A DNA stretch of 64,000 bases from contig JACKFW010000001.1 of NCBI GenBank assembly GCA_020632265.1, forward strand, positions 465,892 to 529,891, written 5' to 3'. Numbering within the stretch: position 1 is the stretch's first letter; each line of letters starts with the position of its first letter. The notes under the pieces were generated by a model, which worked only from the letters and a program-made list of their open reading frames with translations, made no database searches and was not told the DNA's origin. The DNA is from Pseudomonadales bacterium (lineage in GTDB: Bacteria > Patescibacteriota > Microgenomatia > UBA1400 > PJMF01). A program made the translations under genes and the position numbers. Positions 8,825-57,326 of this stretch are shown in pieces.

Positions 8825-8910
8825 GGAGGTGTCGCATAGTGGTCAATTGCACACGCCTGGAAAGCGTGATCCTTATGGATTCAAGGGTTCGAATCCCTTC
8901 ACCTCCGCCA
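8825..8910 (+). tRNA. tRNA-Ser (anticodon GGA)
   Basis: Acceptor GGAGGTG/CACCTCC, anticodon stem CACGC/GCGTG, loop CTGGAAA, long variable arm, T-arm AAGGGTTCGAATCCCTT and an encoded CCA. Its last 20 nt recur at 21791-21810. Confidence 0.75.
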
Positions 8911-10362
8911 TTTTTCTAAATCATGAGAATCATTAAGATTTTCAAGTGGTTTCCACAATTTTGTAAGTCTGGTATTGGTTATTTTTCCATCTTTAAAATC
9001 ACAGTTCCAAAGTACTGATTTTAATAAATCTCTTTTAACTTCATCATCTCCTTCTTCAAAAACTTTAGATAGCTGTACAGCGCTATTTTTTATTTCTTCA
9101 ACAAGTTCCAAAGTTTCTAGAGCCCCTTTGTTATTTTTTTGCTTAAGAAGTACAGAGAGCTGAGCAAGTTCATTTTCAAATTCAATCTTTCTTTCGTTAT
9201 AACGATCAAAAGAAATTTGTTCATCAATATAAATATTCTCAAGTCTTGTTAATTTTCTTTTAAGACCTGAAACTTGTTGTTTAATTGTGTCTTTGTTATC
9301 TTTTTTATTAGCATCCTCTTTTAATAAAGATTGTTTGTATAAATCAAATGATTTATTTGCTCTTTCTGGATCTAGCGTAAAACCTCCAAAGAAATCTTGA
9401 AACAAATCTGAAATATGTTTTTTATTCCAATAGGTTGTATGTTGGGAGCACTTTCCTTTTCCATTTGTGCATCTGTAATAAATATATTTTCCTTTAGCAA
9501 TTCCTGCTGTAACTTTACAACCACATTCAGCACAATTTAGAAAATCTCTAAAAACAAAATTAAGTTTCTGTTTTTTAGGTCTGCTTTTATTTTCAAATCT
9601 AGCTTGAACCTTATCGAACAAATCTTTAGAAATTAAAGGCTTGTGCTTGCCTTCATGGAGTTGTCCTTTTCTGTTAATCACTCCGTAATATTCAGGATTT
9701 ATTAGCTGTCTATATAAACTAGAAGTGCCAACTTTTTTACCACTTCTTGATCTATAACCTTCACTTGCCAATTTTTTAGCTAGAGTTTTAACCGAATGTT
9801 CACCACCAGAAAATAATTCAAACGCTCTTTTAATGAAAGGAGCTCTGATAGGATCTGGTTCAATTCCTTTTCCCGGCTGAATGTTTATGTAGCCGATTGG
9901 AACATAACTTGGATATTCTCCTTTTAATAGTTTGCTTTCATTCCCAGCTTTAACTTTTACTGATAGATCTCTTGAAAATTGAGATGCTAAAACAAAATCA
10001 AATCCCATGTAAAATAGTGAAGAAGCATCTTGAAAAACAGTGGTTAAAGTTCTAACTTCTTTGAGTAGTCCTGTTTCAATCATCTTAATTACGAAACCAG
10101 CATCTATTAAATTTCTAGCTAGTCTGTCAGTGTGTACCACCAAAATCGAATCTGCTTCTCCATTCTTGATTCTGTCCAACATGTTATAAAACAAAGGTCT
10201 ATTTTGATCTGTTTTAGCACTTTTTGATTCTTTGATAATATCAACAACTTCCAACTTCAAACTACTAGCTAAATCTAATAAAAGGCGTTGTTGAGTACCA
10301 AGAGATTGAGTTTGTCTAGAATCTTCTTCAGATGATTTTCTACAATAAATAAAATGTTTCAT
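8899..10362 (-). CDS. large serine recombinase (resolvase/invertase N-domain plus recombinase and zinc-ribbon domains)
   Basis: 487 aa with the N-terminal YCRKSSEEDSRQ catalytic-serine motif and ...VHTDRLARN. The C-terminal region has a Cys cluster (CAECGCK...YYRC). The 3' end overlaps the tRNA-Ser(GGA) 3' end by 12 bp. Confidence 0.8.
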   Translation of the reverse strand: MKHFIYCRKSSEEDSRQTQSLGTQQRLLLDLASSLKLEVVDIIKESKSAKTDQNRPLFYNMLDRIKNGEADSILVVHTDRLARNLIDAGFVIKMIETGLLKEVRTLTTVFQDASSLFYMGFDFVLASQFSRDLSVKVKAGNESKLLKGEYPSYVPIGYINIQPGKGIEPDPIRAPFIKRAFELFSGGEHSVKTLAKKLASEGYRSRSGKKVGTSSLYRQLINPEYYGVINRKGQLHEGKHKPLISKDLFDKVQARFENKSRPKKQKLNFVFRDFLNCAECGCKVTAGIAKGKYIYYRCTNGKGKCSQHTTYWNKKHISDLFQDFFGGFTLDPERANKSFDLYKQSLLKEDANKKDNKDTIKQQVSGLKRKLTRLENIYIDEQISFDRYNERKIEFENELAQLSVLLKQKNNKGALETLELVEEIKNSAVQLSKVFEEGDDEVKRDLLKSVLWNCDFKDGKITNTRLTKLWKPLENLNDSHDLEKWRR

Positions 10363-11237
10363 GATGAATCCTTAAGGGCAGGGAGATTTAAAGTATTATA
10401 CACACTATATTCGCAATCCCCATTTCTTTTTGTTTCAAATATATTTTTATAACTTGGTATTATTTCATTTAATCTTGTGAGAATCTTTTCTGCCTCATAT
10501 CCATATAAAGTAACAGGTTGTTTTAAATTTCTAGAACCAGAATATGCTCTTTTTCCATTGAGTCTCGGATCATCAACGCTTTTTGATAAGTACTTAGCCA
10601 TATATCCAGCTATCCTATCAAGAGTTTTTCTATTAATTTTAACAAAACCAAGCTTCCACCATTTTTCAAGTAATTTTTTAGGTATATAAGGCAAATTACA
10701 AGCTAAATGAAAATGAATAGCTCCTCGATTGTTTTTATCTTGAAATTCAATAACCCAAACATATTTTAAATTAGGATATTTATATTTTAGCAACCTTAAG
10801 AAGTTTTTTAAGTATGCTGTACACTCATCAACATTTGTAATATCTAATCCGCAATCATCTTTTAAGGTAAGAACTATTGATTTAAAAAATCCCTGAAAAT
10901 TAGTATTGATAATTCTTTTAACTTTGAAAGATCGTCTAGTTCCAGTTCTTTTTGAATATTCATCACTTCTATCTTTTTGAGATCCAAAATTATTTAAGTT
11001 TGTATGCGGGAGATTTACAACAATTGGATCTTGATAGATATACTTTTCAACAAAATCTCCTGAAACAATAATTTTTAAATTCGTAGCAAAGGGTTTTGGA
11101 ACATGAATATTGGCTGATATTCTTCGTTCTAGTTTGACGGTATTATCAAGTCTAGTAGTGTGCTCGGGCACACTAGGAAGAGCAAGACCTAAAGGTCTAG
11201 CACCAAGAATATCTTGAACATCATTTTTTAACAACAA
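10359..11237 (-). CDS. rolling-circle replication initiator, Rep_1 (pC194/pUB110-like) HUH family
   Basis: 292 aa with motif II GAIHFHLACNL (HUH) and motif III GYMAKYLSKSVDD (AKYxxK..D, active-site Tyr). Its start overlaps the recombinase start by 4 nt, suggesting an operon. Confidence 0.6.
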   Translation of the reverse strand: MLLKNDVQDILGARPLGLALPSVPEHTTRLDNTVKLERRISANIHVPKPFATNLKIIVSGDFVEKYIYQDPIVVNLPHTNLNNFGSQKDRSDEYSKRTGTRRSFKVKRIINTNFQGFFKSIVLTLKDDCGLDITNVDECTAYLKNFLRLLKYKYPNLKYVWVIEFQDKNNRGAIHFHLACNLPYIPKKLLEKWWKLGFVKINRKTLDRIAGYMAKYLSKSVDDPRLNGKRAYSGSRNLKQPVTLYGYEAEKILTRLNEIIPSYKNIFETKRNGDCEYSVYNTLNLPALKDSS

Positions 11238-11430
11238 TATTACTCCTTTCTTTTTGAAGGAGTGAATGACGATATAGCGCTCTACCTAAATAATATAAGG
11301 AACGATCAATTTCAAAATCAGAATTTTCTGGGGCAAGTATTTGTTGACTGGAATTTGTTTTAAGAGTTTTTTGTTTGTTAAGATCAACAGAAATTGCACC
11401 GCGCTTTAAGCGAGATGTATTTCTTTTCAT
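11221..11430 (-). CDS. small basic protein upstream of rep, hypothetical
   Basis: 69 aa, Lys/Arg-rich, translationally coupled to rep. Confidence 0.3.
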   Translation of the reverse strand: MKRNTSRLKRGAISVDLNKQKTLKTNSSQQILAPENSDFEIDRSLYYLGRALYRHSLLQKERSNIVVKK

Positions 11431-11540
11431 GTTTCATATTAGTCCATGAACGCAGACTCTTAATAATGAATATACAACATTTTTTTATAAACAAAAGAAT
11501 CAAAATGATTCAATCTGGGTTTTATTGAACAATAAATCCA

Positions 11541-11660
11541 GTGGTAAACCACGGGGAGGGGGAAACGATCCAGGGAGGTATCCGGCTTCGCTTCGCGAGC
11601 CTGCCTCCCTTCCATGCCCCTACGGGGCAACCAGGAAAGGAAAAAATCACATGCGAGCTA
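11541..11660. other. GC-rich highly structured element, candidate origin (dso/sso) or ncRNA of the integrated replicon
   Basis: ggggagggggaaacgatccagggaggtatccggcttcgcttcgcgagcctgcctcccttccatgcccctacgggg. A 7-bp stem agggagg/cctccct encloses a GGCT(t)CGC-TTC-GCG-AGCC hairpin, and there is a cccc-tac-gggg hairpin. Local GC is far above the surrounding DNA. Confidence 0.4.
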
Positions 11661-11758
11661 CGCTCGAAGTGATATAGAGGTAACTAACAAAAGTGAAATT
11701 TCAGAATTATGATAAAATTAAAACTGATATTTGAAATTATATAAAGAAATAAATGTGA

Positions 11759-12532
11759 ATGACAAAAATAAAAACAGAGACAGGAATATTGCCACACACT
11801 CTCTTAGTTCCAAATCCTGAAATAGAATCTTTATCAATTCATGAAAAAAACTTGCGTCAAAATTTTCCGAACTTTGAGAGAGTTTCTAATGATTACCTTG
11901 TTAATGAATTGAAAATGGGCAATCAATTTGCCGAAATAATGGATGAGCTGGGAAAAATGAAAAGAAGATTTGGCATTTGTGGAATTATTTCAGGAACAAG
12001 TTTGGCACTATTAACTAGCCCTGATTTTTATAATAATAGATTTAACTTTTCTCCAAAAGAATATAAAAGAATGTTTGATGAAAATATTAAAAAAGGTACA
12101 AAAAAACCTTTTGATTTATTTGCTGAACAATATCTTCTACAGGAGTTTTCCGTACCAGTACTACCTCCAATTATGTCAGCAGAAGGATTAAATAAAATAC
12201 TCTTTAATTTGAAAAGCAATCAGGGATTACATACTTGTGTTTTATGTGAATACGAGGAAGAAAAAGGAACACATACTCATTTTTTAGCTATTAAAAAAAT
12301 CGACCAAAAAAAACTTTTAGTTGTGGGTGACTTAAGCCCATTCGGTTTAAATTGTTGGGGTATTATAGTTCCAGTAGAAGATTATGCGGAGGCTTTAACA
12401 AAAGTAATTGGTGCGAGTTCAACAACAACTGTGAGTGATGCAATTATACAAACAAATATTAAATTTGGAGATGGATTGGATAATTCTAATATATTTGATA
12501 AAAATGCTTATATTTGGACTTTCGAAAACTAA
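11759..12532 (+). CDS. hypothetical protein (cassette 1), possible Cys/His peptidase-like
   Basis: 257 aa with conserved Cys (GICGIISG) and His (HTHFLAI) that could form a papain-like dyad. This is weak. Confidence 0.3.
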   Translation: MTKIKTETGILPHTLLVPNPEIESLSIHEKNLRQNFPNFERVSNDYLVNELKMGNQFAEIMDELGKMKRRFGICGIISGTSLALLTSPDFYNNRFNFSPKEYKRMFDENIKKGTKKPFDLFAEQYLLQEFSVPVLPPIMSAEGLNKILFNLKSNQGLHTCVLCEYEEEKGTHTHFLAIKKIDQKKLLVVGDLSPFGLNCWGIIVPVEDYAEALTKVIGASSTTTVSDAIIQTNIKFGDGLDNSNIFDKNAYIWTFEN

Positions 12533-12579
12533 TTTTATTGAAAATATAATGATTTATCAATATAAAGATTGCTTAAAAA

Positions 12580-12608
12580 AGTTCCAATTTCATCCCACAC
12601 TCTCCGCA
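12580..12608 (+). repeat. tRNA-Ser-3'-end-like cassette boundary repeat (variant B: AGTTCCAATTTCATCCCACnCTCTCCGCA)
   Basis: agttccaatttcatcccacactctccgca. It is nearly identical over 17 nt to the 3' end of tRNA-Ser(TGA), atccctcgctctccgca. Confidence 0.7.
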
Positions 12609-12611
12609 ATA

Positions 12612-13202
12612 TTAAAATAAATCTTTATACGCTACACTTCCCCAGATTGATTCCTGAGGAAATTCTGACTCTTTAATCTGTCTTACTGAAACACCATTAG
12701 TATCCATATGATCGAGTACAACACCACCTCCACTAGTTGCAACTTCTTCTAAAGAACTTACTATAACTATTTTTCCATTTGGGTTTATCTCATACATAGT
12801 TATAAATGTGTCTATATCGGTGGTCCACATTCGTTCTGGTTTTGGCTTATCTAGTGGATCAGTAATTCTATAAAGAACTACCAGTTTAGGATCTACACCT
12901 AACCTTTCTAACTCCTCAATTGGCAGTTGCTCCCCTTCTTCAAGGTCTTGTTGAGAAATTGAGGCACGATGTTCAATAGTTACCATGTGGAGTCCAGTCT
13001 CTTGGAGTTTGTGAACGATAATAGAAAAGTCATTTTGTTGCTTTACAAGATCAGCCACATTGACTCCAATTCTAGTTTCAATTATTTTAGCAAGTGATGG
13101 CATTCTTAAACCCTGAATTTCTGCGGCACCTTGGTCGACTAACCCTAATAAATTTTTTTTTCTAAATGTAGCATTAGTTGGTGATTCTGCAAAAAAAGTC
13201 AT
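12612..13202 (-). CDS. hypothetical protein (cassette 2)
   Basis: 196 aa with no recognisable motif. It is flanked on both sides by variant-B repeats. Confidence 0.4.
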   Translation of the reverse strand: MTFFAESPTNATFRKKNLLGLVDQGAAEIQGLRMPSLAKIIETRIGVNVADLVKQQNDFSIIVHKLQETGLHMVTIEHRASISQQDLEEGEQLPIEELERLGVDPKLVVLYRITDPLDKPKPERMWTTDIDTFITMYEINPNGKIVIVSSLEEVATSGGGVVLDHMDTNGVSVRQIKESEFPQESIWGSVAYKDLF

Positions 13203-13236
13203 AGTGAGATTGTATATTTTATGGCTAAATTAAAAA

Positions 13237-13330
13237 AGTTCCAATTTCATCCCACGCTCTCCGCATGTAGGGACTCCTGGCAGGAATTGTGTTAAAATTT
13301 GGATAGGTGTAGGGACTAGAGAACCTAAAC
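13237..13330 (+). repeat. full cassette junction unit (variant-B core plus promoter-like module)
   Basis: agttccaatttcatcccacgctctccgca then tgtagggactcctggcaggaattgtgttaaaatttggataggtgtagggactagagaacctaaac. It ends 10 bp before the next start codon. Confidence 0.7.
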
Positions 13331-13340
13331 ATATCTTATT

Positions 13341-14183
13341 ATGAAATTTTCAATTATTGTTCCAACTTATAACAGAGCATATATACTTCGAAATCTAATT
13401 AGATCAGTCTTAAACCAAACTTATAATGATTGGGAGTTACTAATAGTTGATGATGGTTCTACTGATTCCACTAAAGAAGTTGTGAAAAAAATTAGTGATA
13501 AAAGGATTATTTTCCTTGAACAAGAAAATCAAGGTCCTTCTGCTGCCAGAAATTATGCTTTAAGTAAATCTACTGGTAAATGGATTGCTTATATTGATAG
13601 TGATAATGAGTTATTGTCGAATTATCTTGATGTTTTATTAATCTTTATTCAAAAAAATCCGGAAGCATTGTTTAGTATTACTAAAGGTATTAGAACATTA
13701 GAACTATTTGAAAATGATCAGCTGGTCGACATTATTGATGATTCTGATAATTATCCTAAAACTGTTTCCGTTGAGGATGTCTATACAAGAAAAGTTAAGT
13801 TTGACATTAATGGATTCGCTCATTCAAAAAAAATATACAACGATGATTATCAGTGGAATGAAGATTTGTCCTTAATGGAAGATTGGGATTTTTTCATGCA
13901 GTTTGCTGATAAATACAAAGATGGACTTGTTTACATTAACATTCCAGTTTTTCACTATCACCAAAGATTTGGAACAGATGGTCTCGTATCAAATGCTAGT
14001 TATAAAGATTGGGCTAAAGCCTTTGAAACAATTTATCAAAGACATAAAAATTCAAAATATATTAAAAATCAAGAATGGTATCCACAAAGAGTTGAAAAAT
14101 ATATACAATTAGCAGTACAGGAAAAAAAAGGAGAAGCAAAACCTGCCTATCTTAAGTATTTCCCAAACTTTGTTTCAAGCTAG
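13341..14183 (+). CDS. family 2 glycosyltransferase (cassette 3)
   Basis: 280 aa with the N-terminal FSIIVPTYNRAYIL...LIVDDGSTD GT2 signature. Confidence 0.75.
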   Translation: MKFSIIVPTYNRAYILRNLIRSVLNQTYNDWELLIVDDGSTDSTKEVVKKISDKRIIFLEQENQGPSAARNYALSKSTGKWIAYIDSDNELLSNYLDVLLIFIQKNPEALFSITKGIRTLELFENDQLVDIIDDSDNYPKTVSVEDVYTRKVKFDINGFAHSKKIYNDDYQWNEDLSLMEDWDFFMQFADKYKDGLVYINIPVFHYHQRFGTDGLVSNASYKDWAKAFETIYQRHKNSKYIKNQEWYPQRVEKYIQLAVQEKKGEAKPAYLKYFPNFVSS

Positions 14184-14214
14184 GATTAAAAAGGTTATTT
14201 TGATTTGAATAGTA

Positions 14215-14308
14215 GGTTCTAACTTGGTACACACACCTCCGCAAGTCAGAACTCCAGGCAAAGAATGTGATAAAATTAGGATAGGTGTAGGGACAGTAGA
14301 ACCTACAT
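14215..14308 (+). repeat. full cassette junction unit (variant-A core GGTTCTAACTTGGTACACACACCTCCGCA plus promoter-like module)
   Basis: ggttctaacttggtacacacacctccgca then agtcagaactccaggcaaagaatgtgataaaattaggataggtgtagggacagtagaacctaca. The core resembles the tRNA-Ser(GGA) 3' end ggttcgaatcccttcacctccgcca. Confidence 0.7.
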
Positions 14309-14331
14309 TAAATTATCAATAGAATATACAT

Positions 14332-15186
14332 ATGTCAGTAGAAGGCTATCGACCAGAAAGAATTCCAACAAGAAGAATAGAAGGTTCTGAAATTAGTACT
14401 TTCAGAGAAATAACTATCGATGAAACTGATCCTGTTGATCTATTTGATATTAGCTGGCCAAATTATAATGCCGGAATTAAGTTTAAAAAAGTTGGATCTT
14501 ATTCTAAGAAACGCTATGGTGTTGAAGAAAGATACCCACTTTATGAAGCAATTGCAATTTTTAAAGATTTAAAGAATAAAGTTCATGAAATAAATTTAAC
14601 AAAGACAACGAGTAGAAAAAGATGCTTATTTACAGGATCAAATTCTGGTTTTTTTATGCATGATCCTGCTTGGGTAGGCATTGATTCGGATTATTATGTT
14701 GTTGGAATTAATCCACGGGAATTACAAGCAGATATTAGAAGACAGATAGCAACTTATCACGAACTTGGACATGCAGAAATTGTGGATCATGGATATGATA
14801 CTCAATTGCTTAAAGGATCTACAACTATGAAAGATAAAGATTTACCTGCTATTTCTATGATTAAAGCTTATGCTAAGAAAGTAAAAGATGCTTTAATTGG
14901 TGCAAGGTATGATATAGAAAAAATAAAAAACATTACTATTACACCACAGATATTATTTGCTCTAATGAATGATGATACTGAAATTGATTCAAGCATAAGA
15001 TTGTTTCATGAAAGAAATGCTTGGGCTGGTGGAGATAAACTTATAAGAAAGCATAAATTTCCAATTGGTTTTGAAAAGAAGAGCTCTTTAAGAGAATATA
15101 GTCAATTTTGTTTAGAAACATATGCAAGATATTATAGTGAAGCAAAATTTACAAAAGGTATGAGAGATCGGAAAAATAGGTTCTAA
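14332..15186 (+). CDS. hypothetical protein with HExxH zinc-metallopeptidase-like motif (cassette 4)
   Basis: 284 aa containing IATYHELGHAEIVDHGYD (HExxH). The TAA stop lies inside the TTCTAAC of the following repeat. Confidence 0.4.
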   Translation: MSVEGYRPERIPTRRIEGSEISTFREITIDETDPVDLFDISWPNYNAGIKFKKVGSYSKKRYGVEERYPLYEAIAIFKDLKNKVHEINLTKTTSRKRCLFTGSNSGFFMHDPAWVGIDSDYYVVGINPRELQADIRRQIATYHELGHAEIVDHGYDTQLLKGSTTMKDKDLPAISMIKAYAKKVKDALIGARYDIEKIKNITITPQILFALMNDDTEIDSSIRLFHERNAWAGGDKLIRKHKFPIGFEKKSSLREYSQFCLETYARYYSEAKFTKGMRDRKNRF

Positions 15187-15208
15187 CTTTGTACACACAC
15201 CTCCGCCA
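15179..15208 (+). repeat. variant-A core repeat overlapping the upstream stop codon
   Basis: ggttctaactttgtacacacacctccgcca, followed by an A-run/T-run hairpin aaaaaaaataacctttttgggtatttttttt. Confidence 0.7.
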
Positions 15209-15229
15209 TAAAAAAAATAACCTTTTTGG

Positions 15230-15400
15230 GTATTTTTTTTATGACGAAATGGCAAAAGGCATGGAGAAGATTGTTCACACCAGCACCTTCAGCACCTACT
15301 GAATGCATGTTCCCACAATTGCCTTACTTCGTATATCCTTGCTAGCTTCCTAGCGCAGCATTAAGTTGCAAACTTCAGAATATCTTGGACTACTCATATA
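15230..15400. repeat. internal copy of the tRNA-Ser(GGA) att-flank region
   Basis: caaaaggcatggagaagattgttcacaccagcacc...gcatgt... is homologous to 21690-21760 (tgcaaaaagattgttcgcaccagtaag...tagtgcatgtgag), which directly precedes the terminal att copy. Confidence 0.45.
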
Positions 15401-15411
15401 AAATAATTTTC

Positions 15412-16335
15412 TTACGCCCATACTAGTGGATGGTCAGAATCCTTCTTTCTCAGAATTGTTGAAAATAGTTTTTTTCCTTTGTTGGGACCAATTTCCACTT
15501 GTAAAATTCTGTTAAGATGAAAATCAGTTAATGCTCTTTCATAAGCAATATCAAAAGATGGCTTAGTTTCATAATTCATAAGAGAACTCTCATTTCCAAT
15601 GGGTGATGGTTCTCTTGATGAGAAAGAAGAATCAATAAAAATACCGTTTTGTGATAAAAGCTCAAAAATGCGTGGTACATGAAATTCTGGGATGTTACTA
15701 TGAACTAAAGACATTCTACTGTGAATCAAGTTAACATTCCCAATAAGTGGTATCACTCCACTCTCAGTTTTAATCTTTAATTGTCTAAATGATTTCACAT
15801 CTTTTGTATCATTGCCAGTTAGTTCTGCTTCCACATATTCAACTAAATTATTTTCTAAAGCATATATTATTGGAGACATATCTAAACCAACATTCGCAAG
15901 TCTAGATTCAGCTGCTAGATGTATATCAAAATTTTGCTCAATATTTGAAATGATAAGCTTTACTTTTCCTTCATTAATCTCATTTTCCAATATTCTTGCA
16001 ATTCTGCAAAAACTCAAACCCAGTCCTCCTCCAAAATCTAAAACTACAATAGGACCACCTCCATCTTTTTTCTCAAGTAGTTGAAGGATCATTTGTTCGA
16101 GACTTTTTTCTATACCTAATAGACTTTCTTTTGTTTCTTCTGTTCTATAAATACTTTCACTCACTCCCATGAGAGTTGATGTACCAAAATCTGCGCTGAA
16201 AACAGGCTTGCTGTAGTCACCAATAGCAAATGACCAAGCTTCACCTGATTCTTCCTTGCCCATTGAACGATATCTTTTATTTTCTAAATGTTGTCTTTTT
16301 AATCTTTTATGAAAATTTCTAAATTCTTGGTTCAT
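15412..16335 (-). CDS. class I SAM-dependent methyltransferase-like protein (cassette 5)
   Basis: 307 aa with motif I VVLDFGGGLGLSF and a downstream acidic residue pattern typical of the Rossmann-fold MTase. Confidence 0.5.
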   Translation of the reverse strand: MNQEFRNFHKRLKRQHLENKRYRSMGKEESGEAWSFAIGDYSKPVFSADFGTSTLMGVSESIYRTEETKESLLGIEKSLEQMILQLLEKKDGGGPIVVLDFGGGLGLSFCRIARILENEINEGKVKLIISNIEQNFDIHLAAESRLANVGLDMSPIIYALENNLVEYVEAELTGNDTKDVKSFRQLKIKTESGVIPLIGNVNLIHSRMSLVHSNIPEFHVPRIFELLSQNGIFIDSSFSSREPSPIGNESSLMNYETKPSFDIAYERALTDFHLNRILQVEIGPNKGKKLFSTILRKKDSDHPLVWA

Positions 16336-16475
16336 ATATATTATATATTACACAACTATATCAAGAAATGATAGGATAATTGGTATATATTGGTCTCATA
16401 TATAGATGGTTTTTTTGCAAGCAATATTTTTTCCAAAGTAAGTCCTCAAATTGGAGAAGTTATTTCTTTTAAAAA

Positions 16476-16569
16476 AGTTCCAATTTCATCCCATGCCCCC
16501 CGCAAGTCAGAACTCCAGGTTAGGAATGTGATAAAATTGGGACAGGTATAAGGAATTTAGAACCTAAAA
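16476..16569 (+). repeat. full cassette junction unit (variant-B core plus promoter-like module)
   Basis: agttccaatttcatcccatgccccccgca then agtcagaactccaggttaggaatgtgataaaattgggacaggtataaggaatttagaacctaaaat. Confidence 0.7.
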
Positions 16570-16573
16570 TACA

Positions 16574-17269
16574 ATGAACACAACTAATTTAACAATTAAT
16601 CTTCAAAAAATAATTAAAATTCTTTCTAAAAACAAACATTTAGAATTTTCTCATACCCAATTAGGAAAAATTTCGGAAAATGAAATTAATACTCCAATTG
16701 GAGACGCAATATCACTTTTTTCAAATAAAAAATGTAAACTTTCAAATGATTTGATTGATCTAGAGCTATTAGAAAAATTGGTTAGCCAGTTAACAAAAAA
16801 TAGCTCAATAATTCGTCCAAGTCATATAGGTTTTTGCTATAAAGTTTTATCAGTAAATGATGAGAAGATCAGAATATCTAATTTAGCAAAAGAATCAGAT
16901 TTAGATTTATACCAAGAGGAATCAAATGATGATGGTCTATGGCTTTTTGTTGGAGATGCAAATAAATGGGAAGAGCCAGTTATTGAATTAATTCCAATAG
17001 AATCCACAAATGATAAATATGTAGATTATTGGTTGCCTCACATTCAAATAGATATTGATACAAATTTAACTGGAGAAGAAATAGATAAAATTGTTAAATC
17101 TATTTTTGGAAACAAGATAATTCCATTTTTTATCAAAATTGATGGTGCAACTTATATTATTAGAAATAGGTTAGGTGTTATTGATGGAGTGAATATTTTT
17201 CTTGACTTAGCAACAAATTCTAGAAAAGTTAAATACTTAAGGCAAGAGTTGTGGAAGAAGATTGTATAA
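16574..17269 (+). CDS. hypothetical protein (cassette 6)
   Basis: 231 aa with no motif recognised. Confidence 0.4.
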   Translation: MNTTNLTINLQKIIKILSKNKHLEFSHTQLGKISENEINTPIGDAISLFSNKKCKLSNDLIDLELLEKLVSQLTKNSSIIRPSHIGFCYKVLSVNDEKIRISNLAKESDLDLYQEESNDDGLWLFVGDANKWEEPVIELIPIESTNDKYVDYWLPHIQIDIDTNLTGEEIDKIVKSIFGNKIIPFFIKIDGATYIIRNRLGVIDGVNIFLDLATNSRKVKYLRQELWKKIV

Positions 17270-17274
17270 AATAG

Positions 17275-17303
17275 GTTCTAACTTGGTACACACACCTCCG
17301 CAA
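17275..17303 (+). repeat. variant-A core repeat
   Basis: ggttctaacttggtacacacacctccgca, 5 bp after the stop of the upstream gene. Confidence 0.7.
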
Positions 17304-17372
17304 GTGATAACAGATCATTTTTTGTGATATACTAAAATTCAATTATTATTATCTACATAATAGGAACATTTT

Positions 17373-17765
17373 ATGAACACCTATGATCAATACAGTCCAA
17401 ATCAGGAAGAAGTAGAAGCATGGACTAACAAAGTTATATCATTAGATATTTTATCAGATGAACAAAAGGAAGAAATAAAAAGACTCAGAGAAAAAAATGG
17501 TTGGGAAGATTTACCTCAGGAATTAGCAGAGATTATTTATAAATTTATTCCTTATTCATTTGATTTATTATCCTTTTCTCGTTTCGTTAATTTATATTTA
17601 GATGCTAATGATCAAGAAAGAGATAAAGCTAAAGAATTAATTCTAAGTTTAGATAATGTGAAAATGACACGAAAACAAGCATTCGATTTTGTAATTTTCA
17701 CTCTAGATGGATCAATTAGTGAGGCTGTAGAAAAAATCAGGTCAGGACAGCCTATATATAGCTAA
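17373..17765 (+). CDS. hypothetical protein (cassette 7)
   Basis: 130 aa, acidic, with no motif. Confidence 0.4.
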   Translation: MNTYDQYSPNQEEVEAWTNKVISLDILSDEQKEEIKRLREKNGWEDLPQELAEIIYKFIPYSFDLLSFSRFVNLYLDANDQERDKAKELILSLDNVKMTRKQAFDFVIFTLDGSISEAVEKIRSGQPIYS

Positions 17766-17976
17766 GTTAAAAAATATTTTATTATATTGCTTTTATAATA
17801 ATTAGTTTATCAATAATTTATACTATCACTCAAGACAAATTTTTTTGCATATATGGGCTGTGGAGGACTACATTAATAGGCCTAGTAAATAAATGTATTA
17901 ACGGATTTGTTTGTGCGTCTAATCAGATTCCAAACTTTTCTGGATGTGGTGGTACTTGTAAACCCAAATAATAATA

Positions 17977-18006
17977 GGCTCTAAATTGGTACACACAGCT
18001 CCACCA
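17977..18006 (+). repeat. degenerate variant-A core repeat
   Basis: ggctctaaattggtacacacagctccacca. Confidence 0.5.
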
Positions 18007-18096
18007 AACAGGATAATACCCCCTTTATCAAAGTCGATATTAGTTTAATATATGTTGCTTAGTTTATGGTTTAATGTGTCGTTTTAATTTCAAGCT

Positions 18097-18558
18097 ATGA
18101 GTGATACTATTATAAACATGAGTCAATTTTTTCTTGCTTATTGGTGGTTATTGCTTTTAGTAATAATTATTATAGCAATTTTCACTAGAAATTTAATTAA
18201 ATTTCTAACTACAGTTATAATATTTATTTTTATATTTATCGTTTTTTGGCAAGTAATTATAAAATCAGGATTTACTCAATCAAATCAGTGTTTCACAAAT
18301 GACTTGAGTTCATCAATCTCTATTAATGAGCGTGCAAAACTTATGAATCCTGGCATAGAGAGAAATCAATATATATGTTCAGAAAGTGTAAAAAGTTTTA
18401 TTTTACTTGAAAACTGTTTAAATAATTCAAAGTTTTCAAACAAATTAAGCTTTACGATTTTTTCCAATCTACCTTGGTTTAAAAATACTATGAATGATGT
18501 TGTAACAACTCATAATCAAAATTGTCCTAATGATCGAATAGACACTCTAACTTATTAA
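18097..18558 (+). CDS. hypothetical membrane-anchored protein (cassette 8)
   Basis: 153 aa with two N-terminal TM helices. Confidence 0.4.
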   Translation: MSDTIINMSQFFLAYWWLLLLVIIIIAIFTRNLIKFLTTVIIFIFIFIVFWQVIIKSGFTQSNQCFTNDLSSSISINERAKLMNPGIERNQYICSESVKSFILLENCLNNSKFSNKLSFTIFSNLPWFKNTMNDVVTTHNQNCPNDRIDTLTY

Positions 18559-18598
18559 AAGCTTATATATTTTATTATTAAACAGTTATCTCAAACCA

Positions 18599-18689
18599 GG
18601 TTCTAACTTGGTACACACCTCCACATGTCAGAACTCTAGGTTAGAAATGTGCTAAAATTGGGATAGGTGTAGAGAATTTGATATCTAAT
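18599..18689 (+). repeat. full cassette junction unit (variant-A core plus promoter-like module)
   Basis: ggttctaacttggtacacacctccaca then tgtcagaactctaggttagaaatgtgctaaaattgggataggtgtagagaatttgatatctaattagaacctaat. Confidence 0.7.
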
Positions 18690-18743
18690 TAGAACCTAAT
18701 ATATATTAAATTGCATTAATAATTTTGTATTGTATTATAAGCA

Positions 18744-19013
18744 ATGTTGTATAAAAAAAAAGTTGTTATGTCACAAAAAATATCAAAATCATCATTACAG
18801 ACAAAAATGATTAAGATAATTGTTAAAAAATATGCTTTGGGTTATATAAATTCAATGAAGGCACGTAACCTAATGGCAGAGGTGTTATCAAAGCTTTCTC
18901 ATTCTACAATTGGACAACTTGATTATCACCAAGTTCTATATTTAACAAGAATAGATGCCATTTTTAGTGAGTTAAAAGATTTCTATTTATCAAAAAATAC
19001 AAAAGGGAATTGA
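18744..19013 (+). CDS. hypothetical small protein (cassette 9, first gene)
   Basis: 89 aa. Its stop overlaps the start of the next ORF. Confidence 0.35.
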   Translation: MLYKKKVVMSQKISKSSLQTKMIKIIVKKYALGYINSMKARNLMAEVLSKLSHSTIGQLDYHQVLYLTRIDAIFSELKDFYLSKNTKGN

Positions 19014-20647
19014 TGATGCATGAAAATTGGTCCATCCCGCCAAATGAAAAAATGACCTTCGGAGAAAGAGGAAGACGAATTAAAAGAAAAGTTATTAAAA
19101 CTTTAAATAGGTTTCAAACACTTTTTTGTATAAGAGATAAAACAGTTGCAGAGATTGCTAAAGCAGAAGATGAAAGTTCTAAAAATATTGATCCCATTAA
19201 TCAATTTGCTGTTACTATGATAAGTGCAGAACCAACTGATTGGATTAATATATTGACTAGTTTGAATGATGATGAATCAGTTGATCTAGATAAAACAATA
19301 GTTGCTCCAGAAAAAACTACTCATGAAAAAGTTCCTTTTGGTTATTTACAAATAGTAACTAAATTAGATCAGGAACAAGTTGAAGATGATGATTCTTTCC
19401 CAAGAATTGAAGGTAGTTTAGAACCTCTTTCAACAAAATATGCTGTTCAAGTTGCAGATTCTTCAACAACAAAGATAACAGATAATTTATCACATCATCG
19501 AATGATGATTGCTACACCACGTTCAGGGAGACAACTAAACGAACTACTTGATGCAGAAATTATATATGGTGGCAGAGCTATTTCTACAATAATGATTAAA
19601 GGTACTGGAGTTCCCAATATAGTCAGAGAAACTTGGGTTGATTATGCAGGGCAAGATGACCCATTTTTTTTCACAGAAAAACAGACTGGTGGTGAAACGG
19701 CAACAGGCTTGATTGCTAAAAATGAAATGATGGGACCAGCACTCAAAGAAGATCAAGTAGAAGATGCGCGAAATTCATTAGTTCTTCATAATGCTGGAGT
19801 AAAGGTAAGAATTCCTTTAGGTGGTTGGGAAGTTAAATCATTTGTTATTGCTGGAGAACAAAAAGATATTGCTTGGTTTAAAGAGCATGGATATGATGGA
19901 GAAGTGTTATATCAATCTGCTTGGGGAATGACATGTCCTTTGCGCATTGAAGATATCAATGATATGTTATCAGAAGCTGTTTATGTTAATAATAATCCAA
20001 AACTACTTGATGATTTACTCAAAGAATTACTTGTTTTTGCACAAAAAGATAAATCAAAACCCTATGTAGATCTCTCTAAAAAATGGAAAGATATTTTAGA
20101 TTTAGATAATTTTGAACTTGATGAAGATACCCGAGTACAGCTCTGGACAGATTTTGGCATTGCTCTCTGTGAAACTATGGGCAGTAATTTTGATTCAATG
20201 CATAAAGCTAATTTAAAGCATGGTAATGCTCATGATCAAAATATTTCATTTTTTGGTGAACTATGTGATAACTCAACTGTAAGTGAGGGTCTACTTGTGT
20301 CTGGAGGTGATCAAAAAATTGGTGATGATATTGATAGTTTTGCTGATGGCATGAGAAGATTCAATGATCGGGTATTAGCAATGAGTGGTGTAAATACCTT
20401 TGATGAGTTTGAATTAGTACAGGAAGCACTTGATAAATATAAACAGGCAGTTAGAAAAAACTGGATATCTTATGAAGAATGGGTGAAGACTAGTACTGGG
20501 TTGCTTGTTTCTGATAATGACAACAGAAATAGAGCTGAAAATGAATTAAATGAATATCAGAATGAAGTAGACGAGTATGATATAAGCAGACAAATACTCA
20601 GAAAAACTGGTGGAGAAAGACGATTTCGAATATATGGTGAAGATTAG
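19010..20647 (+). CDS. hypothetical protein (cassette 9, second gene)
   Basis: 545 aa, acidic, soluble, with no motif recognised. Confidence 0.45.
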   Translation: MMMHENWSIPPNEKMTFGERGRRIKRKVIKTLNRFQTLFCIRDKTVAEIAKAEDESSKNIDPINQFAVTMISAEPTDWINILTSLNDDESVDLDKTIVAPEKTTHEKVPFGYLQIVTKLDQEQVEDDDSFPRIEGSLEPLSTKYAVQVADSSTTKITDNLSHHRMMIATPRSGRQLNELLDAEIIYGGRAISTIMIKGTGVPNIVRETWVDYAGQDDPFFFTEKQTGGETATGLIAKNEMMGPALKEDQVEDARNSLVLHNAGVKVRIPLGGWEVKSFVIAGEQKDIAWFKEHGYDGEVLYQSAWGMTCPLRIEDINDMLSEAVYVNNNPKLLDDLLKELLVFAQKDKSKPYVDLSKKWKDILDLDNFELDEDTRVQLWTDFGIALCETMGSNFDSMHKANLKHGNAHDQNISFFGELCDNSTVSEGLLVSGGDQKIGDDIDSFADGMRRFNDRVLAMSGVNTFDEFELVQEALDKYKQAVRKNWISYEEWVKTSTGLLVSDNDNRNRAENELNEYQNEVDEYDISRQILRKTGGERRFRIYGED

Positions 20648-20754
20648 TGTATAAATGTATAAAATGAATGTTTTTATGGTTTAATACAGTTGAAGCATTA
20701 GAGCTTTATTTAGCTCAAGAAAGAAGTATTATCAGTGATCGACTAAGTAAAACA

Positions 20755-20783
20755 GGTTCTAACTTGGTACACACACCTCCGCA
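20755..20783 (+). repeat. variant-A core repeat
   Basis: ggttctaacttggtacacacacctccgca. The listed 61-aa ORF 20668..20853 spans it and is probably spurious. Confidence 0.7.
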
Positions 20784-20871
20784 TATTAAGAGACATATTA
20801 GTGCTTTAGAATTAAATTTGATGTTTCTTTTTAACAATTGTAAGAACGCATAGTTTTTCTATACTAGATAA

Positions 20872-21537
20872 ATGGATAAAGAAACAAAAACACACACTGA
20901 ATTTGGTATAAGATCTCAAGAAAATAAAAGGCTGATAAACCAGCTTCAGCTTCAGAAACTTAGTCCTGATATAGATTTTTTTCCCAAAGTCGTAGGCTTT
21001 AAAGATTTTGATAATTCTCAGGGATATGAAGTTGAACAAATTGTTGGACAAACATTTCAGGAACTCATGAGTAGTACTAGTAGCTCTGATTTTATTAGAC
21101 TTCTTCTTGTTGCAACTGAGCAGCAACAAAAACTTTTCAAAAATTATGGCATTTTAGTAAAAGATAGAAATAAAGATAATTTTATTTTTGGAGTAAAAGA
21201 TGAAAATTCAAATCTAAAAGTATATCAAGTAGATTTAGAATCTATTTATGATTCTGTTACAGATGCCGACTTTCTTGATATAAATGAACACTTATTATCA
21301 AGATCTAGTAACCCAATTAAAATTAGTAATGAAAATAAAACTGGCATAGAAATTGCAGATATATGTGATTCACTTCAAGAAATATTTATTGAATATTTAA
21401 AAAGAAAAAAAAGAACACAAATTGAGCAACAAGTTTATGTTAAATGGAATAAAAGACTTGGGACTATTAGGAGGATAAAAAACTTTGATAAACTAACTAT
21501 ACTTTTTGAAGATTTATTGAGAATTTTTGGAAATTAA
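20872..21537 (+). CDS. hypothetical protein (cassette 10)
   Basis: 221 aa with no motif. Confidence 0.4.
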   Translation: MDKETKTHTEFGIRSQENKRLINQLQLQKLSPDIDFFPKVVGFKDFDNSQGYEVEQIVGQTFQELMSSTSSSDFIRLLLVATEQQQKLFKNYGILVKDRNKDNFIFGVKDENSNLKVYQVDLESIYDSVTDADFLDINEHLLSRSSNPIKISNENKTGIEIADICDSLQEIFIEYLKRKKRTQIEQQVYVKWNKRLGTIRRIKNFDKLTILFEDLLRIFGN

Positions 21538-21600
21538 AAATTTGATAAATTGCTCATATCTGAAAATATGAACTAAAAGCCAACTTTTATTTAACTTAAT

Positions 21601-21632
21601 AAAGTTCCAATTTCATCCCACGCTCCCCCGCA
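21601..21632 (+). repeat. variant-B core repeat
   Basis: aaagttccaatttcatcccacgctcccccgca. Confidence 0.7.
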
Positions 21633-21790
21633 TATACAAAAAAGTCTCCTGAAAGGCGATGTTTTTGTATAATTGGGGTGTGGTTTGGTATGCAAAAAGA
21701 TTGTTCGCACCAGTAAGAAGTGAGCATCTGCGAACTTCCTGCTTAGTGCATGTGAGCTTCCTTAAGTAGATGCAAATTGCAGCGAATCGT

Positions 21791-21810
21791 GAATCCCTTC
21801 ACCTCCGCCA
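21791..21810 (+). repeat. terminal direct repeat (attR-like): exact 20-bp copy of the tRNA-Ser(GGA) 3' end
   Basis: gaatcccttcacctccgcca is identical to 8891-8910. It defines an island of about 12.9 kb downstream of the tRNA. Confidence 0.75.
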
Positions 21811-21819
21811 TCGTGTATG

Positions 21820-22920
21820 AAGAAGCCAAGAGATCTGTTAAATATGCCTGTCAATCGATCATTTTAGTCAATTCTAACCTTTGATATTCTCTTCGCAGTG
21901 CTGGTGCGTTGTGTTTGATGGGGACAAACCACTTCATTGGCTCAATATAGAGTTTCTCGCCTTGATTTTAGGATTTTATAGCCAAAATATCAAGCACCCT
22001 TTTTCGTAGACACGGTTTCTAATTAGTTAGCGTAGAATTTTGCAGGCGGCATTTTAAGTGCCGAATGAATTCTGCTATGGTTGTAGTTGTAAAGTGTGTA
22101 GTGAATTTCTTCGAGAAAATGACCTTCTGATTCGAAACGAGCAAATTCAAGACCTAAATCAGTTTTAAAGTTGTTATAAAATGATTCTTGAAATCCATTT
22201 TCTCAAGGCGAAGACTTGGTACTCATAGAAATAGTAACTCCAAAGTCTTGCACTGATTTTGTGTAATCTTGACTTATGTATTCAGAGCCCTGATCGGTGT
22301 GAATATAGATTGGTTTTTGAAAATCTCTTCTTTTTCTCCATCTGGCTTTTCTTTTATATGGCTTGATGCCAAATAACTGCATACATCTTCGAACTCGCTT
22401 TTTGCCAACATCCATCTCAATTGCAATTCTTCTGGACCCATAACTTGGTTGATTAACCAACACTGACTCCATTTGTTCCCTGAGTAAAGTATCTTTTTGT
22501 TTTTGTAAAAAGATCGTTTTGTATAGCCATTGTCGAGAAATACCAAGTGCTTTTGCAACAAACTTTTTATCTAACTAAAGATGAATCTGAGTTGCTTTTT
22601 TAGCTGTTTGTGTTTTTCTTTTTTTTTGATCTCTCCAACTCGAGTGTGACGACCCCCAAGATCTTTTTTAAATCTTCATTTTCCTTGAGCAACCGTTTAT
22701 ATTCTCGGTAATTGACTTGCTCGGTCACTTGACCTCGCAACCAACTATAAATTGTCTTGTCACTCACACCGTATTGTTTGGAAAGTTCCACTGCTTTCTA
22801 TCCAGAATTCACTTTTGCCAGTATTTCAGACTTCACCTCTTATGCTATTTCTACCATTTTTTTTCCTCTCGTTTACCATATTTTACTTAGAGTCTGTGTA
22901 AACTATAAGGGGAGTAAGTG
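21820..22920 (-). mobile_element. decayed IS3-family insertion sequence (transposase broken into at least 3 frames)
   Basis: The ORFs 22600..22791 (HTH OrfA-like MELSKQYGVSDKTIYSWL...), 22274..22561 and 22203..22472 (DDE core ...IHTDQGSEY...) are fragments, and C-terminal transposase sequence continues down to about 21.85 kb with internal stops. The end sequence gtaaactataaggggagtaag at about 22890 is repeated as solo ends elsewhere. Confidence 0.6.
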
Positions 22921-25453: not shown

Positions 25454-25603
25454 AAGTTATATGGTATCACAAAATTTATTGGTTTTATACATAATTAATC
25501 AACTTCTTATTTATAATTCATATTGATTTTGAACAATTAAAGATTAAATATATTACTCATATCAGAAAAAAGGAACTAGCAGTCAACTTTTATTTCATTT
25601 AAT

Positions 25604-25755
25604 AAAGTTCCAACTTCATTCCACGCTCCCCGCATTTGACAGAAAGTGAGCTTTAGCTCAGTTTGTGTCAAATATGAATGGGATGAGAAGTTTATGCCCC
25701 ATCAAGCGAAATATAAAAATATAAATTTGAGCATGACCGGGCTTAAATCCCCCTC
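25604..25755 (+). repeat. module M copy 3 (diverged): variant-B core, hairpin, conserved about 60 bp, then a degenerate tRNA-Ser(CGA) 3'-end 17-mer
   Basis: aaagttccaacttcattccacgctccccgca...tatgaatgggatgagaagtttatgccccatcaagcgaa...aaatttgagcatgaccgggcttaaatccccctccctc aligns with the reverse complement of 54351-54515 and of 57741-57877. Confidence 0.6.
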
Positions 25756-55610: not shown

Positions 55611-55639
55611 TAAATATTTAATCAACATTCAACCTACAC

Positions 55640-57323: not shown

Positions 57324-57326
57324 GTT

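Follow-up and report, generated by a model that had tools for sequence, protein, structure and literature searches.

Small gene cassettes bounded by tRNA-Ser-like repeats beside a large serine recombinase in a Patescibacteriota genome

Introduction

Staphylococcal cassette chromosome elements (SCC, SCCmec) are inserted at the 3′ end of rlmH by large serine recombinases (LSRs), either CcrAB or CcrC, and the Enterococcus cassette chromosome is comparable. Composite SCC islands contain tandem elements and recombinase-less pseudo-elements that are set off by degenerate copies of the target end. The actinomycete integrative and conjugative element (AICE) pSAM2 pairs a tRNA-targeting integrase with RepSA, a rolling-circle initiator. 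Bacteria of the candidate phyla radiation (CPR; Patescibacteria) have genomes of about 1 Mb and few recognised mobile elements. The tycheposon islands of Prochlorococcus combine an integrase, a replication module and cargo at tRNA genes, including tRNA-Ser(TGA); neighbouring units are separated by partial tRNAs only, newcomers push older units inward, and 910 of 937 tycheposon integrases are tyrosine recombinases (Hackl et al., bioRxiv 10.1101/2020.12.28.424599). In streptococcal integrative and conjugative elements (ICEs), integrase-less cis-mobilizable elements (CIMEs) bounded by att sites accrete in tandem beside an autonomous element (PMC5704250). The locus described here lies in a 64,000-nt stretch (the window) of contig JACKFW010000001.1 (assembly GCA_020632265.1, positions 465,892 to 529,891), from a CPR genome placed in the Patescibacteriota. 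Downstream of a tRNA-Ser(GGA) gene and beside an LSR gene, this stretch carries an array of small gene cassettes bounded by repeats that resemble the 3′ end of tRNA-Ser.

On balance, the interval is read as belonging to an accretion island seeded at tRNA-Ser, in which site-specific recombination, with the LSR as its probable agent, added the units. A preliminary description had called the array integron-like and had held that no such system was described. With tycheposons and SCC composite islands as close precedents, the second statement was too strong; in the literature searched, the coverage of which was incomplete, the system was undescribed for CPR bacteria.

Results

Repeat cores and cassettes of array 1

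The window had a G+C content of ~31%. Downstream of the tRNA-Ser(GGA) gene, ten cores of ~30 nt were found at 12.5-21.7 kb, six of type A and four of type B, every one on the + strand. Core A (GGTTCTAACTTGGTACACACACCTCCGCA) occurred at 14215, 15179, 17274 and 20755 with at most two mismatches, and in degenerate form at 17977 and 18599. Core B (AGTTCCAATTTCATCCCACGCTCTCCGCA) occurred at 12580, 13237, 16476 and 21603. No core match appeared in 100 shuffled sequences, and the real cores were thus far above chance. The cores bounded 10 cassettes, nine of which held a single gene; the remaining one (18744-20647) held two or three. The preliminary view of a cassette array with diverged tRNA-Ser 3′-end copies as boundaries was borne out.

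That view had also placed a conserved unit between the cassettes. The ten cores agree with it, but a full unit of ~100 nt was present at only four of the ten copies (13231-13329, 14209-14307, 16470-16568 and 18593-18700), the other six being a bare ~30-nt core. In the full units, the core was followed by a ~65-nt module, M1, that ended in an inverted A-like core copy. The features of array 1 and its far end were as follows (Pfam scans covered all window open reading frames (ORFs) of at least 80-100 amino acids (aa)).

8825-8910, + strand: tRNA-Ser(GGA), seed of array 1 (ARAGORN, Rfam).
11759-12532, + strand: cargo gene c1, with core B1 at 12580-12608, where the LSR-Rep unit is proposed to end distally (attR, P arm).
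Cassette 2: gene 12612-13202 (- strand); core B2 13237-13265; putative promoter module M1 13266-13329.
Cassette 3, 13341-14307, + strand: family 2 glycosyltransferase 13341-14183 (Pfam Glycos_transf_2); core A3 14215-14243; M1 14244-14307.
Cassette 4, 14332-15207, + strand: HELGH-motif protein 14332-15186; core A4 15179-15207, then a T-run hairpin.
Cassette 5, 15412-16568: methyltransferase-like gene 15412-16335 (- strand; weak Methyltransf_23 match); core B5 16476-16504; M1 16505-16568.
Cassette 6, 16574-17302, + strand: gene c6 16574-17269; core A6 17274-17302.
Cassette 7, 17373-18006, + strand: gene 17373-17765, with its own putative TGTGATATACT promoter at ~17322-17333; degenerate core A7 17977-18006.
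Cassette 8, 18097-18700, + strand: gene 18097-18558; core A8 18599-18625 (2-nt deletion); M1 with an 11-nt insertion, to 18700.
Cassette 9, 18744-20783, + strand: genes 18744-19013 and 19010-20647, plus a 61-aa ORF; core A9 20755-20783.
Cassette 10, 20872-21632, + strand: gene 20872-21537; core B10 21603-21632.
21633-21810, + strand: X element, with a terminator-like hairpin, ~110 conserved nt, AGCGAATCGT and an exact 20-nt copy of the tRNA-Ser(GGA) end (the C core).
25600-25760, + strand: outlying B core (25606-25634), then an X′ element whose tRNA-Ser(CGA)-type end is truncated.

The B core at 25606 is probably the far end of array 1. Two genes of array 1 (12612-13202 and 15412-16335) run opposite to the cores. 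In total, the gene was antiparallel to the core in five cassettes, so core orientation tracks the array and not the transcript. Searches with PADLOC and NCBIfam returned no matches for the cassette proteins, and a defence-island reading is therefore unsupported.

Several smaller observations concern the same cores. Cassette ORFs often stop in or just before a conserved A(A/T)AG ahead of the GTTC of the A core (15184-15186 and 17267-17269 in the window; also in the related loci L003, L006 and L016), and the TAG stop of the cassette 4 gene lies within the repeat; the repeat itself can thus provide the stop codon. On the minus strand, the GTTCCAA of the B core reads as a -35-like TTGGAA, 17 nt from a TAAAAT or TATATT box (13244-13216 and 12587-12559). 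This arrangement may drive the reversed gene 12612-13202; it is not general, as B5 lacks it. A scan for consensus promoters and terminators (44 sites against 56 expected) was uninformative in this AT-rich DNA; the cores did not qualify as intrinsic terminators.

Likeness of the cores to tRNA-Ser ends

The cores and the tRNA-Ser 3′ ends have in common an outer block, GGTTCNAA, which corresponds to the T-loop, and an inner block. The inner block reads CACCTCCGC where A is aligned with tRNA-Ser(GGA) and CGCTCTCCGCA where B is aligned with tRNA-Ser(TGA). The base-for-base alignment reported earlier holds for these two blocks and not between them, where the cores have exactly 5 extra nt. The comparison covered 59 distinct sites from the window and 30-odd loci. 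Of the 20 distinct real tRNA 3′ ends that the scan matched, 19 had a GTTC..CGC span of 22 nt (the exception was a match of 32 nt); of the 39 non-tRNA cores, 34 had a span of 27 nt. Cores of a further type, F (GGGTTCCAGACCCACATGCTCCGCA), keep the tRNA spacing of 22 nt.

In LSR attachment sites, the zinc-ribbon-domain motif lies 5 bp further out in attP (half-site positions 16-24) than in attB (11-19) (Rutherford et al., 2013; PMC3783163), and the 22- and 27-nt spans match this shift. With a crossover assumed at about CTC/CGCA, GTTCNAA occupies positions 13-19 where the site is a tRNA-Ser end or an F core, and 18-24 where it is an A, B or E core. On this geometry, LSR sites would have their B-type arms in tRNA ends and F cores and their P-type arms in the A, B and E cores. 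LSR sites measure about 50 bp (attP) and about 40 bp (attB). The left arms fit the attB/attP geometry (22 versus 27 nt); the right arms were heterogeneous, and some partner sites shared CCGC only. A tRNA end or F core together with the module M4 formed a ~40-bp inverted repeat centred on CTC/CGCA.

Single-strand folding against shuffles gave z scores of -1.2 to -2.7 for A-type units and +0.9 for B-M1. The palindromy likened to attC in the preliminary description is accordingly not general: B-M1 and C-M1 units folded no better than shuffles, and the right arm did not co-vary with the left core. Since the right arm is A-like whatever the left core, pairing within the unit is not conserved. The inverse unit ends noted there (TAGGTTCTAA...TTAGAACCTA) were recovered where the left part is an A core and not with other cores, the right arm being always inverted A-like. 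A 50-bp perfect A-M1 palindrome centred between CC and GC was considered and rejected; it exists in only some M1 variants, and a systematic scan found the best repeat off-centre.

Junctions and cassettes in related genomes

A degenerate pattern covering the A and B cores returned 6 genome loci and 11 metagenome loci, and the comparisons below draw on 43 retrieved loci, cited by handles of the form L003. The repeats matched metagenome-assembled genomes labelled Candidatus Pacebacteria or Patescibacteria, where arrays again lay downstream of tRNA-Ser and the same repeats flanked different cargo, one of the checks proposed at the outset. Cores were absent from the viral contigs searched.

In related Microgenomates genomes, real tRNA-Ser genes replaced cores at the same ..CCGCA junction. 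Recombination at tRNA-Ser ends had been proposed and gained support here, as the modules were joined at this junction to five tRNA-Ser isoacceptors (GGA, GCT, TGA, CGA and ACT) and, elsewhere, to cores A-F. The tRNA-module junctions were GGA-M1 (L003), GCT-M1 (L006), GGA-M2 (L016), GCT-M3 (L018), ACT-M4 (L025), TGA-X (L004) and GGA-X (L006). The left partners of each right-hand sequence were:

M1: tRNA-Ser(GGA), tRNA-Ser(GCT) and cores A, B, C, D and E.
M2: tRNA-Ser(GGA), A, B′ and D.
M3: tRNA-Ser(GCT), A and C.
M4: tRNA-Ser(ACT), F and A.
X: tRNA-Ser(TGA), tRNA-Ser(GGA), A and B.
LSR end: tRNA-Ser(GGA), (GCT), (CGA) and (ACT), and B-like cores.

Conversely, each core preceded many different right-hand sequences, and more than 15 unrelated ones were found after an identical A core. 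Such combinatorial junctions are the pattern expected from conservative site-specific recombination with a very short crossover. Several partner pairs have CCGC alone in common, which fits the 2-bp crossover of serine recombinases better than the 6-8-bp overlap of tyrosine recombinases.

One cassette was common to two genomes with exact breakpoints. Window positions 16488-17303 (core end, M1, c6 and A core) were 90.3% identical over 816 nt to L025 6860-7675, with unrelated flanks; the L025 copy lies behind a partial tRNA-Ser(GGA), between unrelated genes. In L016, a close relative whose tRNA-Ser(GGA) is 98.8% identical, c6 and its A core were 85% identical and homology stopped at the last base of the core. 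Exact partial tRNA copies were found in X, X′ and L025. The cargo of the tRNA-Ser(GGA) locus was almost wholly different among the window, L016 and L018. The array 2 gene at 56137-55715 showed 75% aa identity to a gene downstream of tRNA-Ser(GCT) in L018.

The LSR-Rep unit

Next to the seed tRNA lies a putatively autonomous unit with the following genes and elements.

8899-10362, - strand: LSR, 487 aa (Pfam Resolvase PF00239, Recombinase PF07508 and Zn_ribbon_recom PF13408).
10359-11237, - strand: rolling-circle Rep (Pfam REP_ORF2-G2P/RepSA; the PF20199 RepSA match is weak).
11221-11430, - strand: 69-aa ORF beside Rep, no family match.
11530-11690: GC-rich structured stretch with a hairpin of loop TTCGCTTCGC, flanked by CCCCCCGC...GCGGGGGG.

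The LSR had 406 homologs at E<=1e-20, and its catalytic S10 and R8 were invariant in 25 homologs (alignment A1). LSR homologs were always accompanied by Rep and the small ORF, a conserved triad seen in L018-L024, L029-L031 and L038-L043; the conserved 65-69-aa ORF is a candidate recombination directionality factor. In the window, the LSR stop lies inside the 3′ end of the convergent tRNA-Ser(GGA). The stop always abutted or overlapped a convergent tRNA-Ser 3′ end, namely GGA (window, L038), ACT (L018, L024), GCT (L023, L029) or CGA (L031, L042). In this family, the C-terminal consensus DLExWRRxxDSNPR is the antisense translation of CCTCCGCCA and the T-loop (alignment A1). Because the C-terminus is encoded by the antisense of a tRNA-Ser end, nearly all family members adjoin such a site, and the end of the protein depends on the integration target (487-521 aa among homologs with fetched contexts).

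The order tRNA-Ser, LSR-Rep-small ORF, cargo, B core was found in eight independent contexts (window, L018, L023, L024, L029, L031, L038/39 and L042/43). In these contexts the B-type core that closes the unit lay 3.7-6 kb away, past variable cargo, and LSR units elsewhere measured 3.7-8.5 kb; since LSR units end in B cores, the autonomous unit in the window is 8911-12608 (3.7 kb) and not the whole 12.9 kb. The window's own LSR-Rep unit was also present on contig L036. In two further loci, L005 and L030, the LSR end came immediately after a B-like core, as it would in attP or where a newer insertion had overtaken the unit. Together, these contexts strengthen the proposal that the LSR is a plausible enzyme for the locus. 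It is not a fixed platform integrase beside an attI: the LSR sits in one mobile unit, and two window arrays have no recombinase. The LSR was the sole intact recombinase in the 64 kb, so the statement that no other was visible stands for intact enzymes and needs qualification for an rve transposase fragment at 22203-22472.

The GC-rich hairpin region is a candidate nick site or replication origin for Rep. Homologous regions were found in L018 (8700-8900) and L024 (8700-8950). A remnant without LSR-Rep in L016 (7538-7440, - strand) directly follows an A core and heads a B-ended cassette, which suggests that B-ended cassettes are LSR units minus LSR-Rep. A C-terminal remnant of the LSR was present in L005.

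A search of viral contigs with the LSR profile found distant relatives only. On the 5015-nt IMG/VR contig L032, a 38%-identical LSR abuts tRNA-Gln(TTG) (4893-4966) in the same convergent layout, and other tRNAs may serve as targets in the wider LSR clade. Among the targets of the LSR are full-length tRNA-Ser genes that have an unusual anticodon, ACT (A34); these occurred in L018 (11453-11540), L024 (11453-11540), L025 (12599-12684) and L029 (6080-6169). They co-occur with tRNA-Ser(GCT) in the same genomes and have their own promoter-like TGATATAAT box; none was found in the window.

Modules M1-M4 and the X elements

M1 and M2 carry a near-invariant extended -10 box, TG-N-TA(A/G)AAT; in the 13 M1 copies the form TG-N-TAAAAT was almost invariant. 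These modules are therefore best regarded as putative promoter modules, which would give the cassettes their own promoters. By pattern scan, 9 of 13 genes preceded by M1 or M2 ended in an A core; with three junctions missed by the scan and a degenerate A-like core in L018 read in, the count was ~11 of 15.

An exact-match search found the last 20 nt of tRNA-Ser(GGA) (8891-8910) repeated at 21791-21810. This copy had been placed at an end coordinate of 21812 and taken for the terminal att site of the island. It belongs instead to X, a separate element of ~180 nt that is found after intact tRNA-Ser genes without an LSR. X was 81.5% identical to the sequence directly after the real tRNA-Ser(TGA) in L004 and 88% identical to that directly after the real tRNA-Ser(GGA) in L006. 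In both loci it ends with a copy of the 3′ end of that very tRNA, the L006 copy being the C core; X′, a cousin of X behind tRNA-Ser(CGA) in the window, likewise ends in a copy of that tRNA's end. The 21791-21810 copy was rejected as the right end of an LSR island, given the 3.7-8.5 kb, B-ended LSR units elsewhere and the occurrence of X after intact tRNAs. The pre-insertion state of the locus was likely tRNA-Ser(GGA) followed directly by X, with the array inserted between them later.

In the window, X and X′ (130-180 nt) were present at 21633-21810, 55681-55523 (-), 57875-57741 (-), 54511-54376 (-) and 25635-25760. Their bodies are conserved, and the 17-20-nt tRNA-Ser 3′-end copy matches the tRNA that they follow. 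They may be native tRNA trailers with a spare att site, miniature integrative elements or small RNAs. Rfam searches, at gathering thresholds and at E<=0.5, returned five tRNAs and tRNA-derived noise and left the cores, X/X′ and the GC-rich region unmatched.

Arrays 2 and 3 and the remainder of the window

The repeats had been thought to be limited to 11700-21812. Further copies were found at 25606, 54540-54512 (-), 55522-55457 (-), 57309-55697 (-), 59778, 60392, ~61110 and ~62013. All copies in the 64 kb lay downstream of three tRNA-Ser genes and were co-oriented with the seeding tRNA in the three arrays; the same orientation was seen in L003, L004, L006, L016 and L018. Altogether, three of the four tRNA-Ser genes in the window precede cassette arrays, and the arrays occupy ~1/3 of it. 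The block at 26-54 kb, which encodes AdoHcy hydrolase, TatC, a class II aminoacyl-tRNA synthetase and other housekeeping genes, contained no cores. An even, housekeeping distribution like that of repetitive extragenic palindromic (REP) sequences therefore does not apply, at least within the 64 kb. The features of arrays 2 and 3 were as follows.

Array 2, 54376-57962, - strand: five F cores at 57309-55697, one M1 and one B core.
57962-57876, - strand: tRNA-Ser(CGA), seed of array 2.
57875-57741, - strand: X′ with a 17-nt exact copy of the tRNA-Ser(CGA) end (57757-57741), then module M3.
~57524-57328, - strand: ORF; F core and M4 at 57310-57262.
57229-56561, - strand: PhzF-like gene; F core and M4 at 56552-56505.
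~56491-56297, - strand: ORF; two empty F+M4 units in tandem at 56274-56170.
56137-55715, - strand: gene; F′ at 55706-55682.
55681-55523, - strand: X with a GGA-type C core (55550-55523); M1 55522-55457; gene 55450-54659.
54540-54512, - strand: B core; X′ at 54511-54376.
Array 3, 59003-62045, + strand: cores progressively degenerate.
59003-59087: tRNA-Ser(TGA), seed of array 3.
59107-59769: kinase-like gene; F-type core 59778-59802.
59822-60310, - strand: gene; B core ~60392-60424.
60453-61091: GDSL lipase; degenerate B core ~61110-61135.
61142-61954, - strand: gene; degenerate B core ~62013-62045.

The tandem F+M4 units at 56274-56170 (-) are ~53 nt each and have no intervening gene; they could be empty cassettes or free landing pads. 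A 2191-aa ORF (47542-54117, -) with only a weak HATPase_c match begins just past the end of array 2. A GIY-YIG nuclease domain is fused to NUDIX at 29678-30409 (-), and small stand-alone GIY-YIG homologs lie in or beside arrays in L023 (~900-1140), L024 (~3800-4030 and ~12650-12850), L009, L011 and L031 (2470-2748). Beyond array 1, an IS3-like transposase frame (rve/HTH_21) lies in fragments at 21900-22600 (-), its rve part at 22203-22472. At a position occupied by W or Y in relatives it reads an in-frame TGA (..SSP*ENGFQESFY..); it is a pseudogene or else comes from an organism in which TGA is a sense codon.

Discussion

Directly observed are the repeats and their association with tRNA-Ser, the junctions in many combinations, one cassette shared between genomes with exact breakpoints and, in many genomes, the structure of the LSR unit. 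Movement of the A-type cassettes by the LSR, as opposed to some other enzyme or homologous recombination, is inferred, as are the crossover position and the order of insertion. The favoured account is that of an accretion island seeded at tRNA-Ser. Units whose ends imitate the tRNA-Ser 3′ end over ~30 nt would have been inserted successively downstream of a tRNA-Ser gene, through conservative, site-specific recombination in the ..CCGC(C)A that they share with it. The unit 8911-12608 would be autonomous, an integrative rolling-circle replicon with LSR, Rep, small ORF, origin-like hairpin, one cargo gene and a B core. Of the attachment sites, attB would have its B arm in the tRNA end, and attP would have its P arm in the B core. 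The remaining units would be non-autonomous. B-ended ones look like LSR units that have lost LSR-Rep. A-ended ones appear compact, with a promoter module (extended -10 box and inverted A-like arm), usually one gene and an A core, and seem to behave as discrete exchangeable cassettes. The LSR would probably serve as recombinase for all units, acting in trans on cores that have the outer recognition motif at attP-type spacing.

Several points weigh against this account. Canonical LSRs without a directionality factor do not recombine attL, attR or attP x attP. Repeated insertion at an occupied tRNA would need relaxed right-arm requirements. The right-hand modules have no common half-site, and the strongest A-M1 inverted repeat (GTTCTAACTTG-15 nt-CAAGTCAGAAC) has its centre 7-10 nt to the left of the junction. 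Homology links the A, B and E cores, so their +5-nt spacing may go back to one ancestral event and not to repeated selection. Two window arrays, and those of L006 and L016, have no LSR within the retrieved sequence. The tRNA-Ser(GGA)-M1 junction is kept even in a more distant genome, L026, so some junctions may be old and vertically inherited. No excised circle, same-strain empty site or alternative junction was seen, and none of the 43 fetched contigs was circular.

A bolder form of the same account, which we hold only tentatively, is a serine-recombinase counterpart of the integron. The A units would be free cassettes with an attP-like junction of A core and module in the circle, and the LSR of the mini-replicon would capture, excise and reshuffle them in trans, with any tRNA-Ser 3′ end as a possible site, and likewise landing pads that mimic a tRNA, for instance the empty F+M4 units. 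If so, reduced-genome CPR bacteria would have a dedicated gene-capture system.

It is unlikely that the repeats instead act in regulation or at the level of RNA. The module would then supply a promoter, and the transcript would begin in the inverted A arm and pair with the A core in its 3′ untranslated region, which would stabilise the mRNA or lead to its processing; shuffling would come from homologous exchange between ~30-100-nt repeats, as proposed for the PeSL cassettes of T4-type phages, and the tRNA likeness would be ancestral. The near-invariance of the TG-N-TAAAAT box in 13 M1 copies speaks for such a role, as do the complementary 5′ and 3′ ends of the 9 of 13 (roughly 11 of 15) M1/M2 genes that end in an A core and the retention of tRNA-Ser(GGA)-M1 in the distant L026. 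However, five cassettes have their gene on the strand opposite to the core, and B, F and C cores have no complementary partner. The same junction behind five tRNA-Ser isoacceptors, with as little as 4 nt in common, is hard to obtain by homologous recombination, and the junctions of the LSR unit are plainly site-specific.

Slightly less likely still is a true integron-like platform, with a dedicated recombinase, sites folded as hairpins from core and module, a tRNA-Ser end as attI and promoter-bearing single-gene cassettes. The regular, mostly single-gene cassettes with co-oriented sites, compact boundaries and stops in or beside the core would suit it, as would the discrete cassette common to two genomes and the long hairpins that A-M1 and A-M2 units can form (z -1.4 to -2.7). 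Yet the folds of B-M1 and C-M1 equal those of shuffles, with a right arm that is A-like regardless of the left core, and 6 of 10 cores in array 1 have no right arm at all. The cassettes appear to carry their own promoters and the LSR itself lies within a mobile unit. Pfam scans of the window found no tyrosine recombinase; with no conserved folded attC either, the earlier observation that IntI and classical attC are missing was confirmed.

Mobile insertion cassettes akin to miniature inverted-repeat transposable elements, with the inverted A arm and the A core as terminal inverted repeats and a transposase encoded elsewhere, are highly improbable: 10-28-nt inverted repeats do flank genes (TAGGTTCTAACTT.. 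/ ..AAGTTAGAACCTA) and the rve fragment at 22203-22472 is near, but no target-site duplications were visible, insertions are restricted to the downstream side of tRNA-Ser and all co-oriented, the breakpoints between genomes fall at core-module junctions and not at the outer ends of the inverted repeats, and the window holds no intact transposase with matching ends.

The arrays may be a main route of accessory-gene flux in this lineage, and on the accretion island account the picture of tRNA-seeded islands would extend from Prochlorococcus to an unrelated streamlined lineage with another class of recombinase. The result looks like convergence on an integron-like cassette economy. Should the LSR act on the cores, this would be a natural case of one serine integrase with many related landing pads, which would bear on integrase specificity and on tools for genome engineering.

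Among described systems, tycheposons share with this locus an integrase, a replication module and cargo at a tRNA 3′ end (here LSR, Rep and cargo), as well as tandem units with partial tRNA separators, degenerate remnants, scattered partial tRNAs and a streamlined host genome. This likeness is one of architecture. Unlike tycheposons, the locus combines an LSR with a rolling-circle Rep, and its separators are conserved variants with 5-nt longer spacing and not plain partial tRNAs. Most of its units hold a single gene and have putative promoter modules in common. A single LSR family targets at least four isoacceptors of tRNA-Ser, and the host belongs to the CPR.

SCC islands resemble it in their LSRs, insertion at the 3′ end of a conserved gene and tandem arrays with degenerate target copies. 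They differ in that the target here is tRNA-Ser and not rlmH, the units are single genes of ~0.7-2 kb versus 10-60 kb, a replication gene is present and three arrays occur per 64 kb. Like CIMEs and AICEs, the locus has integrase-less tandem units beside an autonomous element, and its Rep weakly resembles RepSA; those systems, in contrast, use tyrosine integrases, conjugation modules and large units. In A, B and E cores GTTCNAA stands 5 nt further from the junction than in tRNA-Ser ends and F cores, which recalls the att geometry of serine integrases (PMC3783163), but this is clear in left half-sites only, right half-sites being heterogeneous.

With integrons, the locus has in common co-oriented sites, compact and mostly single-gene accessory cassettes, arrays that differ between close relatives and a few cassettes with reversed genes. 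Integron membership nevertheless failed on every defining feature tested: there is no tyrosine recombinase, attI-Pc platform or conserved folded attC, the cassettes have putative promoters of their own and the recombinase lies in a mobile unit. The locus stands closer to known tRNA-seeded islands than to integrons, but its form is integron-like and unusually regular. What sets it apart is the combination of an LSR with a tRNA target, conserved non-tRNA cores with attP-type spacing, mostly single-gene units bearing putative promoters and a CPR host.

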